From an uncultured Planctomycetota bacterium (GTDB lineage: Bacteria; Planctomycetota; PLA2; JAEUHO01), in contig CAVVXN010000005.1 in the NCBI GenBank assembly GCA_963752285.1, positions 2,208,001 through 2,272,000 on the forward strand: DNA of 64,000 nt. Direction: 5' to 3'. Position numbers and translations under genes: made by a program. Shown one piece after another: positions 6,528-24,048 of the stretch. Each line of letters starts with the position of its first letter. The first letter of the stretch is position 1. The notes under the pieces were generated by a model, which was not told where the DNA came from, did not search any database, and worked only from the letters and a program-made list of their open reading frames with translations.

Positions 6528-8504
6528 CTAGTCGTTCCCGTGGTGACCGTGGTGACCGTGGTGACCGTGGTGACCGTGGTGGCCGTGGCCATCGCAGTCG
6601 CAGTCGCACAGCGTCCGGAGGTAGCCGACGGAAGCGCTGTGCTTGTCGTTGTAGTAGAGCCTCTCGAGCGGATCGAGCGTGGACTCCACGACGTCGTGCA
6701 GCGGGCTCTCCCAGTCACCGGGATGCTGGAAGTTGCTCAGGACGTAGACGAAGCCGTTCAGGTCGTCGATCGGCTGGAGGCCCGTGGATTCCGCGCCCGC
6801 CGGGCAGGAGAGGATCCGGCTCAGCTTCTTCGTGTCCACGTTGTAGGCCCAGAGGAAGTTGTTGACGTGGTTGCCGCTGTCCTCGCCGACGAACAGCGTG
6901 CGCATCCCTTCGCTGAACTTGACGTTGTCGGGGTTCGCGATCTTGTCCGCGTTCGCGCTGTTGCCGAGGGCGTCGCGTACGGCGAGATCCTCGCCGATCA
7001 GCGCGTCGGGCGCCCACATCGACGTCGGGACCCACTGGCTGTGGATGGAGTGCCCGTCGGAGTCGGGCTGGTGCCCCTCGAGCTGGATCTCATAGACCGC
7101 GCCGGCGACCGGCCCCCCGACGTGGATGTCGGTGGTGCCGTCCGTCATCGACTTGTAGATGTACGACATCGCGACGTACGCACGCTTGTCGGCGCCGTTC
7201 ACCGTCATGCCTTCCATCTTCGAGAACCCCAGGGAGGCGCCGACGAGCGCCGCGTACCGGTGCGTCTCGAGGAACGCGGCCGCCTTCTCCATGCCCGGCT
7301 TCAACCGGACCCAGTTGTTCGCGCCGCTGTAGCGGATCTTCGTGTAGCTCGAGTCGCTCGGATCGACCTTCGAGACGTCCATGATGTCGGCGGCCGTGAT
7401 CCCGCCGTCCACGAGAGCCTGGATCTCGTCGCTCGTCGTGTGGCCGAGCCAGATCCAGGAGAGGTCGGCGGAGCCGGGGCCGACGCCGGAGGTCTGCGTC
7501 CACTTGGCCGCGTAGAGCGTGCCCGCGGACAGGTCGCGCTTGTGGTCCGCCACGAACAGGAACAGCCCGCCGTTCGTGGCGTCGTCGCCCATAAGGACGG
7601 TCCGCTCGTCGGGCAGCACCTGGACCACCTCGTGCGAGATGCGGCCGAGACAGTAGTGCTTCACGATGCTGGCCGTGCCGTCGGCGTGGACGGTCACCTC
7701 GGGGATGTGCCCGTAGTCGTAGGGGTTGGCGGCGCTGGGGTCGCCGAACAGGTTCGTGCTGAAGGCCTCGAGCTGCGCGTTGCTGGCGAGGGTCGCGTCC
7801 GGCTCGTACTCCTCGCTGGACAGGTGCGTGCCCCAGGGCGACGTGCTCGCGGCGCAGGTGATCCAGAGGCCCCGCGCGTCGGACGTGTCCACGTTGTGGT
7901 AGCTGACGAGGCTGAGCTCGCCCGTGCACGAGTCCTGGTCGAGGGTCAGCACCGCGATCGGCGACGGGAGCTTCCCGTACATCGAGTCGCCGTCGTCGTT
8001 GTAGGAGACGTACTCGAACTGCACGACGGCGAAGATGCGCTTGCACCCGTTGCGGTGGGAGTGCGCGCCATCGAGCTGGATCAGGGACATCCCGTCGGGG
8101 CAGTCGGAGAAGAACTGGTGCGAGTCGGCGGACGTCGGATCGACGATCGGCACGCCGTCGATGTCGTAGCAGCCCCCGGCCACGATGGTGCCGCCGCCGG
8201 TCTTCGGCACCACGTCGCCGGTCAGGAAGAGGCTTTCGTACGCGAGGTCGCACGTCTCGGCGTCGTGCGGTCCCCGGATCGTCGTCAGCGAGGACGCGAC
8301 GTAGGTCGACGCCATCTGCGTCGGGTCGGAGAGCGACGGCGCGTCCATCGAGTCGAACACGTAATGGGCATGTGCGCCGCCGGGCGTCGCCTGCGCGACG
8401 TCGGGCGCGCTGCCGAGCCAGGCGGCGACGAGAAGCAGGGAAACGACGGTCAGCAGGGTGCTGCCGAGCGAATGTCGGCGGAACGGACCAACGGGGTGCG
8501 GCAT
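6528..8504 (-). CDS. phoX: PhoX-family alkaline phosphatase (DUF839) with Cys/His-rich C-terminal tail
   Basis: ATG at 8504 with GGAGA RBS; RR-containing signal peptide; motifs CAASTSPWGTHLSSEEYE, GRISHE, KMEG, NPDN, GEDS, AESTG, SNFQHPG. Confidence 0.88.
   Translation of the reverse strand: MPHPVGPFRRHSLGSTLLTVVSLLLVAAWLGSAPDVAQATPGGAHAHYVFDSMDAPSLSDPTQMASTYVASSLTTIRGPHDAETCDLAYESLFLTGDVVPKTGGGTIVAGGCYDIDGVPIVDPTSADSHQFFSDCPDGMSLIQLDGAHSHRNGCKRIFAVVQFEYVSYNDDGDSMYGKLPSPIAVLTLDQDSCTGELSLVSYHNVDTSDARGLWITCAASTSPWGTHLSSEEYEPDATLASNAQLEAFSTNLFGDPSAANPYDYGHIPEVTVHADGTASIVKHYCLGRISHEVVQVLPDERTVLMGDDATNGGLFLFVADHKRDLSAGTLYAAKWTQTSGVGPGSADLSWIWLGHTTSDEIQALVDGGITAADIMDVSKVDPSDSSYTKIRYSGANNWVRLKPGMEKAAAFLETHRYAALVGASLGFSKMEGMTVNGADKRAYVAMSYIYKSMTDGTTDIHVGGPVAGAVYEIQLEGHQPDSDGHSIHSQWVPTSMWAPDALIGEDLAVRDALGNSANADKIANPDNVKFSEGMRTLFVGEDSGNHVNNFLWAYNVDTKKLSRILSCPAGAESTGLQPIDDLNGFVYVLSNFQHPGDWESPLHDVVESTLDPLERLYYNDKHSASVGYLRTLCDCDCDGHGHHGHHGHHGHHGHHGND
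6538..6582 (-). repeat. 9-bp tandem repeat (CCGTGGTGA on +, five units, last imperfect) encoding (GHH)5
   Basis: Read directly from the sequence. Confidence 0.9.
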
Positions 8505-8586
8505 GAACGATCTCCAGGATTCGCGGGAGCGATCCGTGCCCCCGGGCGAACGAGGTGACGTAGGTAGGGCGCGGTGGTGGCGCCGT

Positions 8587-8618
8587 GGTGAATGCGAGGT
8601 GAGAGTTCGGTGAATGCG
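8587..8618 (-). promoter_or_regulatory. PHO-box-like direct repeats, 11-bp period
   Basis: GGTGA on + at 8587, 8598 and 8609. Minus strand reads CATTCACC/CTCTCACC/CATTCACC, 83-114 nt upstream of the phoX start. Confidence 0.65.
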
Positions 8619-9230
8619 TCCCTCGCGTCGGCGACGGCGCGTCGGAGGGTCCGCCACGGTGACTCCTGCGGACGCGCGGCGGGGTCCGCCGAGTCGCCGA
8701 CGCGACGCACGCGGCATCGGGCATCGCGCGCGCAACGCGGACCGCGCGCCGAGACCGCGCGCCGCACGCGCACGACATCGCGCGCGCGTGCGCTCGGGGC
8801 GACGCGTACCCGCCGACGTCGGCTCGGGCCACGGAACGGCGCGCCGTTGCGGAACCACGAGGCCGCGTTCCGAAGACGGGGCAGGGTGCCGGCGCGTCCC
8901 TCGCCGAGACGGGCCGGCCCCCTGGACTCGTCCGAGCCGAGGTCCTCCTCCAGGGAGCCCATCCGAACCGACCGTCGTAAAGAAGCGAAGCGGAGGCGGT
9001 GAATTGCCCCGGGCGATGACCTTCGACCCGCGCCGGTCACGAGGGTCGCGGGAGGCCGACCGAGGTCAGCGAACCGCGCACCGCCGGAGCAGACGCACCC
9101 CCGCCGCGAACCCGACGCGCCGCGAGGCCGCGCCGACCGGACCACGGCACGGGACGGAGGCCGGAACCCGTCCCGCACGAACCGCAGGCGGCTCGATACG
9201 ATGCGCGAGGACTCGGTCGGGAGGTCGCGG

Positions 9231-9323
9231 ATGCGTCACTGGTGGAAGGCCCTGGCCCTCGCTCTTCTCCTCGGCTCGGCGGCGCTCACCTCCGCCTGCG
9301 CGAGCTGCGGTCCCACCGGCTGA
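9231..9323 (+). CDS. 30-aa small protein, putative micro-lipoprotein MRHWWKALALALLLGSAALTSACASCGPTG
   Basis: TACGAT -10 at 9197-9202, GGAGG at 9220-9224, ATG 9231, TGA 9321-9323, followed by a GC hairpin. Classic n/h-region signal peptide ending LTSA-C. Confidence 0.65.
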   Translation: MRHWWKALALALLLGSAALTSACASCGPTG

Positions 9324-9377
9324 CGCCCGGTCGCGCCGCCGGGTGCGGCGCCTCCCCTCATCCGCTAGGGTCGGCCG

Positions 9378-9551
9378 TCAGTCCGACCGCGGGCGGCGCC
9401 CGTGCGCCGCGTCGGCCTCCTTCGCGATGCGCTCGAGCCTCGCGAGGTGCTGGAGGAACGCGCGGCGTCCCGCGGCGGTGAGCCGGTACGTGGTCCGGGG
9501 CTTCCGGTGGACGAACCGCTTGTCGACGGCGACGTCCCGGGCCCGGGCCCC
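9378..9551 (-). pseudogene. 3' half of a winged-helix (HTH_34/ArsR-like) transcriptional regulator, no start codon
   Basis: Translates ...DVAVDKRFVHRKPRTTYRLTAAGRRAFLQHLARLERIAKE..., the wing and final helix of this family. It lies in frame directly after the TGA of the phosphotransferase gene. Confidence 0.7.
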
Positions 9552-10445
9552 TCAAACGCTGCGGGCGAGGAGGGTCAGGCGCTCCACGCAGCCGCGGGCG
9601 ATCGCCGCGGCGTCGAGCCACGGGGGCGGATCCTGGAGGTCGCAGAGCTCGCAGATCGTCGAGCAGAGATCGACGCGCGCGAGGTCCATCGACCGACCGG
9701 TCGTCCTCTCGTAGCGCCTCGCCGCGCGGCGGACCAGGTCGTTCGAGACCATGTGGAGCGGCGCGAGCTCGCCGTGCACGTCGCCGATCGCGGCGTCGCC
9801 GAAGTCGAAGAGCCCGACGAGCCGCCGCGCCTCCCGGTCGAAGGCCATGTTCCAGCCGTGCGCGTCGAAGTAGCCGAAGACCGGGTCCCCCGCCGGCACG
9901 GCGAGCGAGGGGGAGCGCTCGATCGCCTCGCGGGCGAAGGGGACGAGATCCCGGGGCAGCCGCGGCAGCACGTCCCGCAGACGATCGGGGCCGGGGAGCG
10001 GGGGAAGGGGCCCGGCGCCGAGCGCCCGCGCCTCGGCGAGGGGGATCTCGTGGAGCGTCGCGAAGAGGGCGACCACCCCCTCGGCGACCCCGTCGCGCTC
10101 CGCGGGCGCGAGTCGCTCGTAGTCCGGGGCGAGGAGGTGGTCGCCCGGGATCTTCCGGTGGAACGAGAAGGGCCACGGGCCGTCCCGGAGCCGGGGGCGG
10201 GGCGTCTCGACCGGCAGGGCCGGGACCCGCGCGCAGATCCGCACCTCGCGTCCGAGCGTCCGGAGCGCCCGGGCGTCTCGCGGGAAGCGGACGATCCACC
10301 GGCCGTCGTCCACGGCGACCGAGTCCCAGCCCGTGTCGTTCGCGCGAGCCCGCCCCGCGTCGAACCCGGGAAGGCGCGGCGTGACCACCCGCGCGAGGAA
10401 CGCGGGCGTCACGTCGCTCGGTCGGCGGACGAAGCTCGGTGCCAT
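9552..10445 (-). CDS. Aminoglycoside phosphotransferase (APH) family kinase
   Basis: GWDS loop, WIVRFPR, catalytic-loop variant YFDAHGWN, GLFDFGDA. Confidence 0.8.
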   Translation of the reverse strand: MAPSFVRRPSDVTPAFLARVVTPRLPGFDAGRARANDTGWDSVAVDDGRWIVRFPRDARALRTLGREVRICARVPALPVETPRPRLRDGPWPFSFHRKIPGDHLLAPDYERLAPAERDGVAEGVVALFATLHEIPLAEARALGAGPLPPLPGPDRLRDVLPRLPRDLVPFAREAIERSPSLAVPAGDPVFGYFDAHGWNMAFDREARRLVGLFDFGDAAIGDVHGELAPLHMVSNDLVRRAARRYERTTGRSMDLARVDLCSTICELCDLQDPPPWLDAAAIARGCVERLTLLARSV

Positions 10446-17879: not shown

Positions 17880-18851
17880 ATGCGTCACTGGATCCTCGGC
17901 GCCGCCGCGTGCGCCTTCGTCGTCCTCGCGGTGGCCCCCGCCGGCGCGGACACGGCCTACGTGAGCACGTACTACAGCACGCTCACGACCATCGACACGA
18001 GCGCGGGTTCCACCAGCTCGTTCTCGTATGCGGGCACCGCCGACACCCGTGGCGCCGCCTTCGACCTCGACGGCACCCTCTACACGACGACGAACGGCGG
18101 GGCGTCGCTCGGCGCCTACGACACGACGACCGGCGCGGTGACGGTGATCGGGAGCCTCCTCGGCGCGGGCTCATTCGACCAGCTCTACGCGATCGACATC
18201 GACTCGAACGGCACGCTCTACGGCGTCACGTGGACGTACGGGTACCTGTACCAGATCGACAAGTCCACGGGCACGCCGACCCAGATCGGCTCGACGGGCG
18301 CGTTCGGCTTCACCGACCTCGCGTTCGACGCGAACGACGTCCTCTGGGGCGTCGCCTCGAACCAGCTCTACACGATCGACGTCTCGACCGGCCAGGCCAC
18401 CCTGCAAGGCTCGATCAGCGGCGTGGCGGCCTACACGTACGTCGAAGGCATCATGTTCGACGCGGCGGGGAACCTGCTCGCGACCACGAGCACGGCGAAC
18501 GCTCCGCTCCTCTACATCGACCTCTCGACGTTCGCCGCGACACAGGTCGCTCTGACCGGCGCCTTCATGCCCTACGCCGGCGACATCTTCGTCCCCGTCG
18601 CCTCGGCGTCGGACGACCCGACCACGGGGGACGAGGGCGACGACGCGGACGGCGAGGACGACGGCTGTGACGGCCACCACCGCCAGGACGGCGCTCACGG
18701 GCACCACGGGCACCACGGGCACCACGGGCACCATGGACGCTTCGGCCCGCACTCGCACGAGAGCCACGGCCACCCGTCCGCGGCGCAACACGGCCACGCC
18801 GCCGCGGCGAGCCACGCCTGCGCCGGGCACGACGCGCACGGCCACCGCTAA
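17880..18851 (+). CDS. Secreted beta-repeat (propeller-like) protein with acidic and His-rich C-terminal tail
   Basis: Signal peptide ending APAGA-D; repeated AFDxxGxLY and LYxIDxSTG units; tail DDGCDGHH...(GHH)4...HGHR. Confidence 0.8.
   Translation: MRHWILGAAACAFVVLAVAPAGADTAYVSTYYSTLTTIDTSAGSTSSFSYAGTADTRGAAFDLDGTLYTTTNGGASLGAYDTTTGAVTVIGSLLGAGSFDQLYAIDIDSNGTLYGVTWTYGYLYQIDKSTGTPTQIGSTGAFGFTDLAFDANDVLWGVASNQLYTIDVSTGQATLQGSISGVAAYTYVEGIMFDAAGNLLATTSTANAPLLYIDLSTFAATQVALTGAFMPYAGDIFVPVASASDDPTTGDEGDDADGEDDGCDGHHRQDGAHGHHGHHGHHGHHGRFGPHSHESHGHPSAAQHGHAAAASHACAGHDAHGHR
18696..18731 (+). repeat. 9-bp tandem repeat (CACGGGCAC)4 encoding GHH repeats
   Basis: Read directly from the sequence. 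Confidence 0.9.
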
Positions 18852-23172: not shown

Positions 23173-24048
23173 CTAATCGATCCAGGCAGGCGGGGCGATC
23201 CGCGCGACGATCCACACGGCCACGCCGGAGAGGACGAGCGCGCCCGCGGTCCCGAGGAGCCCGCCGGCCCGACCCGTCCGGACGAGGAGGACGCCGCCCA
23301 CCGCGGCGAGGGCGAGGAGCACCGCGGCCGCGAGCGGGAAGGACGTTTCGCCGGGGTGGTTCAGGTACGCGTGGCCCGACACCAGCAGGCCCGTGAAGAC
23401 GAGCGAGACGGGCGCCGCCGCGGCCGGGAGGACCTCGCGCGCGAGGGGACCGCGCGCGCCGGCGAGCGTGGCACCGAGCGTGGCGCCCGCAAGCGCCCCC
23501 GCCACCCCGCCGAGCACGAAGGAGCCGGCGAACCGCGCGTACGCCGCCGCGGTCGCGCCGATCGCGAGCGCGAGGGGCACCGCCGCCGCGAGGCCCGGGC
23601 GGCGCCCCGTGACCGGACGAAGGGCCGTCCACAGCGCGCTCGCGAGGAGGGCTCCCGCCGCCACGTGGACCGCCTCGAGGCCGGGCGAGAGCCCCCGGTG
23701 GGGCGCCACGACGAGCCACGCCGCCGCACCCCCCGCGAGGGCGCGAAGCAGTCCCCGGAGCGCGAACGGCAGGCGGCGGGCCTCGACGACGCCGGCCAGC
23801 CACCCGAGCGGCGCGAACCAGAGCGTCCACCGCCAGGCGTCTTCGCCGGGCGCGAGGGGGAGAGACGGCCACGGCACGAGCCGCAGCGCGCCCACCCCGA
23901 ACGCGAAGACGAGGACGAGCGCTGCGGCGGGTCCGAGAAGCGCCCTCGCGCCGACACGCCGGGCGAGGAGCGAGAGCACGAGGACCCCCGCCGCCGACAC
24001 GGCGCCGGGGAGCAAGACGGCCCCGAGCGCCTCGCTCTCGTACGTCAC
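23173..24048 (-). CDS. Polytopic membrane hypothetical protein
   Basis: Multiple hydrophobic segments; start approximate (GTG 24048). Confidence 0.6.
   Translation of the reverse strand: MTYESEALGAVLLPGAVSAAGVLVLSLLARRVGARALLGPAAALVLVFAFGVGALRLVPWPSLPLAPGEDAWRWTLWFAPLGWLAGVVEARRLPFALRGLLRALAGGAAAWLVVAPHRGLSPGLEAVHVAAGALLASALWTALRPVTGRRPGLAAAVPLALAIGATAAAYARFAGSFVLGGVAGALAGATLGATLAGARGPLAREVLPAAAAPVSLVFTGLLVSGHAYLNHPGETSFPLAAAVLLALAAVGGVLLVRTGRAGGLLGTAGALVLSGVAVWIVARIAPPAWID

Follow-up and report, generated by a model that had tools for sequence, protein, structure and literature searches.

A 30-codon reading frame with a lipoprotein-type start in a planctomycete genome, tentatively read as the remnant of a small lipoprotein gene

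Can a frame of only 30 codons, most of them spent on a signal peptide, be a lipoprotein gene in its own right? This question is raised by a short open reading frame (ORF), hereafter the mini-ORF, in a stretch of 64,000 nucleotides (the window; contig C5:2208001-2272000) from the metagenome-assembled genome (MAG) of an uncultured planctomycete, which comprises 4.64 Mb in five contigs with 73% GC. An earlier note on this DNA had proposed a complete expression unit for a micro-lipoprotein whose mature product would be the lipid-bearing octapeptide lipid-CASCGPTG, and all the sequence features which it listed are present where it had placed them. One part of this proposal is upheld: as judged from the Shine-Dalgarno (SD) sequence, the ATG, the signal peptide and the codon use, the start is of a genuine lipoprotein type. 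The other part, a maintained gene, finds no support, as no relatives were found. Since the frame has such a start but ends after 8 mature residues, and has no relatives, we tentatively regard the mini-ORF, with a probability of about 0.4, as what may be left of a small lipoprotein gene, cut off or decaying, rather than as a maintained, working gene.

The signal-like part accounts for 22 of the 30 residues of the predicted peptide. R2 and K6 lie within its first 7 residues, giving the n-region a net charge of +2, and are combined with an uncharged hydrophobic core of 13 residues, whose best 10-residue hydropathy is 2.32 (the median of real lipoproteins being 2.5). A canonical lipobox reads [LVI][ASTVI][GAS]C, with the Cys at position 15-35. 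In the mini-ORF it reads L-T-S-A-C, with the Cys at position 23, A at -1, S at -2 and T at -3, in agreement with a relaxed PROSITE-type pattern. The T at -3 is indeed non-canonical, as the earlier note had remarked: it occurs in 12 of the 225 long lipobox ORFs of the genome, and the complete TSAC in none of them (0/225). The processing enzymes are encoded, with two copies of Lgt (PF01790, 221 and 196 bits) and one match to LspA (PF01252, 109 bits). A further in-frame ATG, at 9201, lacks an SD sequence; a start there would lead to a form of 40 aa.

How readily such a start arises by chance was judged on ORFs of 20-40 aa in the real and in the reversed genome. A loose, PROSITE-type lipobox rule retained 98 ORFs in the real genome, 7 of them with ATG and SD and 1 with ATG and GGAGG, compared with 216, 4 and 1 in the reversed genome; this rule does not separate the mini-ORF from chance and is uninformative. 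The stricter combination of a best 10-residue hydropathy of at least 2.0 with a positive n-region left 6 ORFs in the reversed genome, none with ATG, and 5 in the real one, where the two with ATG and SD are the mini-ORF and the start of a likely selenoprotein gene described below. In a position-specific scoring matrix (PSSM) around the lipobox Cys, trained on the 225 long, coding-like lipobox ORFs, the mini-ORF scored at the 41st percentile of these and was among the best 3.4% of the 179 short ones. A codon model placed its frame above the other five by 5.1-21.6 nats, and in sliding windows over 8480-9370 it gave the strongest frame signal, with a margin of 12.8 nats vs 0.1-6.4 elsewhere. With its codon score the mini-ORF stands at the 24th percentile of real lipoprotein N-termini and at the 90th percentile of 997 intergenic ORFs (density ratio of the former over the latter ~3.2), only 0.85 nats above the intergenic model, and both the rare-codon count and the GC content at third codon positions are ordinary for real N-termini. 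The sequence GGGAGGTCGC, which contains the SD, has 96 copies in the genome, 8 of them with an ATG within 6 nt, and all 7 of the other GGGAGGTCGC-ATG sites open frames without a stop over the 40 codons shown. On the strength of the strict signal-peptide test, the PSSM, the codon use and the context of the ribosome-binding site (RBS), we conclude that the mini-ORF has a present or recent true lipoprotein-type translation start and is unlikely to be a chance ORF.

Several other presumed marks were rejected. Rare codons are no sign of decay, since 41% of real N-termini carry as many; the 10-mer GGGAGGTCGC shared with a 48-aa lipoprotein gene is no sign of homology, since it is not retained in orthologues of that gene and represents a common strong-RBS context; and CGT at codon 2 shows no enrichment that would mark a true start.

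The control signals of the supposed complete expression unit, on the other hand, did not hold up. The TACGAT put forward as a -10 box was not recovered as a promoter, and a scan with the sigma-70 consensus revealed no promoter-like or terminator-like site in 8500-9800. The GC hairpin behind the stop has a minimum free energy of -25.7 kcal/mol (z = -0.42), and 60 of 200 dinucleotide shuffles fold equally well. Neither the hairpin nor the supposed -10 box thus exceeds chance level, and no Rfam family was matched over 8300-9700 at E <= 1. The earlier note had further pointed to an identity of 12 nt between the start of the mini-ORF and that of a gene at 17880. The identity is real, the 12-mer ATGCGTCACTGG being found in the genome at 9231 and 17880 only, but no similarity flanks these two copies on either side. 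Since the match does not extend, and since signal peptides starting with MRH are also present in relatives, it provides no evidence of common origin.

We then consider conservation, for which the earlier note had suggested a tblastn-type check against related genomes; neither this check nor any other search revealed it, an outcome that the note had listed, together with a lack of translation, as speaking against its proposal. The mini-ORF has no paralogue in the source genome and no match at E <= 0.05 in the 39 other genomes of the class (28 of the family and 11 further ones of the order; 0/39, best E = 0.07). The 40-aa form has no counterpart among proteins of near or longer length in a set of 5.8 billion clusters (word search). 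Against 1.84 billion representatives, phmmer gave 0 matches to the mini-ORF peptide at E <= 0.001, which is weak evidence, since a signal-rich query of 30 residues can hardly reach significance. Among the profile libraries used (Pfam, NCBIfam and Rfam), Pfam gave no match and NCBIfam at best 14-18 bits with an unrelated model, vs a cut-off of 37; the best ESM Atlas score, 0.86, provides leads only. At 80 metagenome loci with homologues of the neighbouring PhoX-type phosphatase, no ORF or spacer resembles that of the mini-ORF, and the best tblastn matches there (E >= 0.002) fall inside the PhoX coding region. A DNA search of 8900-9700 in 40 relatives returned only short GC-rich chance matches and a paralogue of the downstream regulator. 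Since no homologue was found, homologues running past the TGA, which the earlier note had named as the sign of a truncated longer lipoprotein, were neither seen nor excluded.

The same method can detect short lipoprotein ORFs, since three control lipobox ORFs of the source genome found their orthologues in it: those of 68 aa, 48 aa and 26 codons are present in 17, 8 and 3 of the 28 family genomes, respectively, each time including the same-genus genome. The mini-ORF sequence itself is not an assembly quirk, as near-identical short, low-depth DNA contigs occur in marsh metagenomes from two studies. These pieces span 9169-9319 and 9254-9535, with 1 difference over 151 and 282 bases, a variation too little to judge selection.

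Among the weak matches to the mini-ORF, a family of tiny Cys/Pro-rich lipoproteins of 39-107 aa surfaced, often arranged in tandem. Their mature part starts with C-[SN]-[SA]-C-x-P-C (for instance CNSCNPC, CNACSPC or CSSCNPC; in the mini-ORF, CASCGP) and continues with EPVYQSPCCPAPSG or with CNQPNP repeats. Neither Pfam nor NCBIfam holds a model for this family, which is conserved, with members in 17 of the 28 family genomes, lineage-specific and undescribed; the literature on a cystine/proline-rich planctomycete envelope offered nothing usable. When 226 lipoprotein N-termini of the genome were scored with a hidden Markov model (HMM) of the family N-termini, the mini-ORF ranked first (21.6 bits, the next reaching 18.4), and it ranked second of 226 with an HMM of the core subfamily. 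It has the same kind of signal peptide and the same C-x-x-C-x-P mature start. It differs in its length and cysteines: family members have a mature part of at least ~19 residues with at least 3 further Cys, and in the core subfamily EPVYQSPCCPAPSG, the shortest member being of 39 aa with ~19 mature residues, whereas the mini-ORF has 8 mature residues, one further Cys, no such motif and no orthologue. Since the HMM signal comes largely from the second Cys, the kinship of the mini-ORF with this family is suggestive and not proven.

A further property of the organism bears on the stop codon. The genome encodes a selenocysteine machinery with tRNA-Sec (C1:658178-658276), SelA (433 bits) and the wing domain of SelB (62 bits). 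The 26-codon control proved to open the gene of a secreted ~245-aa protein, in which a TGA lies in frame immediately behind a Cys. The TGA is kept in four genomes, with a conserved hairpin behind it; the protein is likely an exported selenoprotein with a Cys-selenocysteine pair. At least 5 further likely selenocysteine sites were located, at C5:1821586 (+), C5:252206 (-), C5:1051408 (-), C4:141550 (-) and C4:48192 (+), with thioredoxin- or peroxiredoxin-like motifs such as W-U-GPC, T-U-VPC, W-U-PWC and TPG-U-T. Together with SelA and SelB, these sites indicate that the lineage uses selenocysteine widely. A hairpin resembling a selenocysteine insertion sequence (SECIS) was defined, after looking at the same sites, by a stem of at least 6 bp and a loop of 3-5 nt with an early G that starts 15-23 nt after the UGA. 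Such a hairpin is present at 5 of 6 likely selenocysteine sites, at 147 of 2311 ordinary TGA stops (6.4%) and at 301 of 5000 random TGA triplets (6.0%). The mini-ORF hairpin also fits, its loop CGGGT starting 16 nt after the UGA.

The surroundings of the mini-ORF point to a decaying setting, since the regulator gene whose stop lies 54 nt downstream is truncated at its 5' end and both flanking genes are without orthologues in the 4 nearest genomes. The regulator, convergent with the mini-ORF, lacks its 5' half and abuts the stop of a phosphotransferase (APH family) gene. Over 173 nt it is 79% identical to an intact paralogue of 109 aa at C5:31309-31638 (L022 3310-3639, minus strand), which sits behind a gene for a 209-aa membrane protein. 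No match was obtained in these 4 genomes for APH at E <= 1e-10 or for PhoX at E <= 1e-20. The PhoX gene is divergent from the mini-ORF, and its metagenome homologues, of at most 76% identity, match from query residue 1. The spacer of ~760 nt between the two (8480-9230) carries no clear coding signal, and a six-frame Pfam scan of 8450-9711 recovered only the HTH_34 regulator fragment.

How, then, could a genuine start be followed by so little? In the reading that we prefer, a strong RBS, an ATG and a Sec/signal peptidase II-type signal peptide would be the start of a former small lipoprotein gene, whose longer frame may have been shortened by a deletion or by a change of a Cys codon to a stop. 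The likely parent would be a relative of the tiny C-x-x-C-x-P lipoproteins of the lineage, and the site a variable island next to another broken gene. If still translated, the peptide would be inserted into the membrane, receive a diacylglyceryl group from Lgt at Cys23 and be cleaved by LspA to lipid-CASCGPTG; there is no indication that selection keeps this product. Several points weigh against a remnant. Neither a parent gene nor a longer homologue was found in the searches, so that the truncation is one that we infer. The 30 codons are free of decay, with SD and ATG intact and normal codon use, and the layout of stop, hairpin and convergent stop is also compatible with an intact small gene. 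The 54 nt that separate these stops are not a demonstrated junction, since the similarity of the regulator paralogues ends ~10 nt past their stop codons and would end there anyway; the one break that is proven is on the far side of the fragment, near 9545. The link to the Cys/Pro-rich family consists mainly of another Cys at the third position behind the lipobox Cys, with a margin of only 3 bits, and the conservation comparison is weakened because the whole neighbourhood is variable, the flanking genes themselves lacking matches in the nearest four genomes. A rival reading is that of an intact micro-lipoprotein gene, the shortest of the Cys/Pro-rich kind, whose 30-aa precursor would yield membrane-anchored lipid-CASCGPTG. 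At the membrane surface, the product might serve as a thiol/metal or disulfide tag, or else the released signal peptide would be the active species. Start signals and signal peptide typical of real lipoproteins, the presence of Lgt and LspA, Cys-rich lipoproteins of 39-68 aa conserved across genera in the source genome and its relatives, a position in gene-free space with a hairpin between convergent stops, and the marsh contigs that cover most of the mini-ORF are all consistent with it. We nevertheless consider it unlikely, given that no search found a relative while the same method succeeded with three short controls, that the mature part is under half as long as that of the shortest family member, that its TSAC is absent from the long lipobox ORFs, that no promoter-like site was detected and the hairpin is no better than shuffles, and that no described lipoprotein is known to us to have an 8-residue mature part.

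Two more explanations start from the same features. A fortuitous resemblance to a lipoprotein start, in a chance ORF within GC-rich non-coding DNA, would account for the equal yield of the loose rule in the reversed genome (one ATG and GGAGG case in each), the codon score close to the intergenic model, the lack of conservation and of promoter or terminator signals, and the ~760 nt without clear coding signal around it. It is improbable in view of the strict test, which leaves no ATG-started case in the reversed genome, the high PSSM rank among short lipobox ORFs, the long frames behind all other GGGAGGTCGC-ATG sites and the first rank out of 226 against the family N-termini. Alternatively, the TGA at 9321 would encode selenocysteine, the hairpin at 9333-9351 serving as its SECIS, in a 45-aa pre-lipoprotein MRHW...CASCGPTG-U-RPVAPPGAAPPLIR. 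The organism has the machinery and several likely selenoprotein genes, in one of which four genomes share the TGA; as in bacterial selenoproteins, a 7-bp hairpin with a G in its loop, of the form seen at 5 of the 6 likely sites, stands at the right distance behind the UGA; the frame stays open for 14 codons past the TGA, to a TAG at 9366; and with this extension the score against the family HMM rises by 2.6 bits when the stop is read as X and by 4.5 bits when it is read as C. Unlike bacterial selenoproteins, the mini-ORF has no conserved downstream frame, no Cys-homologue and no known selenocysteine motif. Moreover, the hairpin definition was set post hoc on the same sites and ~6% of ordinary TGAs pass it, selenocysteine genes are a handful among ~2300 TGA-ended genes, the codon score of the extension is neutral (-1.95 nats vs the intergenic model), Rfam shows no SECIS match, the 45-aa form has no relative in the 5.8-billion-cluster set, and none of the 27 Cys/Pro-rich family loci scanned contains a TGA-interrupted member (0/27). 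We therefore hold this form to be very improbable. A functional gene encoding a ribosomally synthesised lipopeptide, the plain 30-aa and the selenocysteine form taken together, is doubtful, with the latter form making up only a very small part of it; if it existed, its product would be lipid-CASCGPTG or, in the selenocysteine form, a 23-residue lipidated Cys/selenocysteine peptide at the membrane surface.

With known substrates of Lgt and LspA the mini-ORF shares a basic n-region, a hydrophobic core of 13 residues and small residues before Cys23. It differs from them by the 8 residues after the Cys and by T instead of L/V/I at -3, and its lipidation is predicted. To our knowledge, no lipoprotein with an 8-residue mature part has been described, and lipid-CASCGPTG would be the smallest lipoprotein known. 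Colicin lysis proteins (Pfam PF02402) have a signal peptide that is active in its own right once cleaved off. The literature that we searched contained no lipoprotein with an 8-residue mature part, the small ones found being a member of the entericidin A/B family from S. meliloti, of 52 aa (PMC10117765), and PflE of C. jejuni, of 57 aa (bioRxiv 10.1101/2025.04.02.646747). Entericidin A/B, PflE and the colicin lysis proteins resemble the mini-ORF in being short precursors with a large share of signal peptide, but all are clearly longer. With the Pfam and NCBIfam models of entericidin, colicin-lysis and other curated small-lipoprotein families, the mini-ORF remained below cut-off, and an ESM Atlas look-alike in a Lysis_col cluster, which scored only 0.82, is a lead and not evidence. 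Enterococcal sex pheromones are cut from lipoprotein signal peptides (PMC4173765) and would be a precedent for a released signal peptide as the active species; they derive, however, from full-size lipoproteins and require a site-2 protease, an exporter and a receptor.

If the mini-ORF were translated and processed, its mature part of 8 residues would push down the known size limit of bacterial lipoproteins; the product would be a lipid-anchored CxxC peptide made straight from a gene and would bear on the minimum length of a Sec/Lgt/LspA substrate. As it stands, the locus mainly calls for caution, since a flawless-looking start with a signal peptide does not equal a gene when it has no relatives and lies in a decaying neighbourhood. 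The more useful yield is a poorly sampled lineage with undescribed Cys/Pro-rich lipoproteins and a rich use of selenocysteine, either of which could explain such mini-ORFs.

Table 1. Features of the mini-ORF, its neighbours and the loci compared with it. Positions are those of the window unless a contig is given.
Feature	Position	Strand	Remark
TACGAT, candidate -10 box of the earlier note	9197..9202	+	present; promoter function unsupported
Shine-Dalgarno GGAGG within GGGAGGTCGC	9220..9224	+	six nt before ATG
Mini-ORF, 30 codons + TGA	9231..9323	+	peptide MRHWWKALALALLLGSAALTSACASCGPTG
Signal-peptide-like part, residues 1-22	9231..9296	+	n-region MRHWWK, h-region ALALALLLGSAAL, TSA before Cys23
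Would-be mature peptide CASCGPTG	9297..9320	+	Cys23 would be the lipidation site if processed
TGA stop	9321..9323	+	alternatives: former Cys codon or selenocysteine
14 further in-frame codons RPVAPPGAAPPLIR + TAG	9324..9368	+	read only if TGA is passed
GC hairpin GCGCCGC-CGGGT-GCGGCGC, 7-bp stem	9333..9351	.	between convergent stops 9323 and 9378
HTH_34 winged-helix regulator, 3' fragment, 57 codons + stop	9378..9551	-	Pfam HTH_34 positions 41-79/80, E = 2.2e-9
Phosphotransferase (APH family) gene	9552..10400, start approximate	-	Pfam PF01636, E = 7e-23
PhoX-type alkaline phosphatase gene	6528..8480, start near 8470-8480	-	Pfam PF05787, E = 1e-21
68-aa member of the Cys/Pro-rich family	C5:1645674-1645877	+	orthologues in 17/28 family genomes
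Further locus of the Cys/Pro-rich family in the source genome	C5:1646100-1647600		
Gene of ~245 aa containing TGA	C1, start 493520, TGA 493440-493442	-	..TAIGGC-U-GRSAASMAVL..

Some minor observations concern the neighbouring genes. A minus-strand frame at 8453-9178 was rejected as a gene, since its coding signal is weak (at least 5.3 nats over 242 codons) and it has no Pfam match. The PhoX-type phosphatase carries a C-terminal Cys-Asp/His-rich tail, CDCDCDGHGHHGHH...GND. In run X1, a contig of 450 nt matches 9254-9535 and then diverges, and another matches 9527-9653 after 24 unlike letters, so that there may be a strain whose regulator and APH genes are not fused.

Elsewhere in the genome, a start MRSSRRWGPLAVVLVVGGGA... 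occurs four times behind the same RBS, at C1:45225 (-), C1:31440 (-), C2:7869 (-) and C3:6875 (+); three of the four copies are identical over the 40 residues shown, and they probably belong to a repeated element near contig ends. Among the ARAGORN calls is an irregular, tRNA-like one, whose anticodon loop is odd, at 23430-23522 of the window (C5:2231430-2231522, minus strand); it is probably false. Finally, another family of small lipoproteins, of 45-50 aa and with the motif WNW(S/T)DPFHPxVCP, is represented in the source genome at C5:284421-284564 (+) and present in 8 of the 28 family genomes; its stop position is similar in the four copies read (G000, which is the source genome, G001, G009 and G013).

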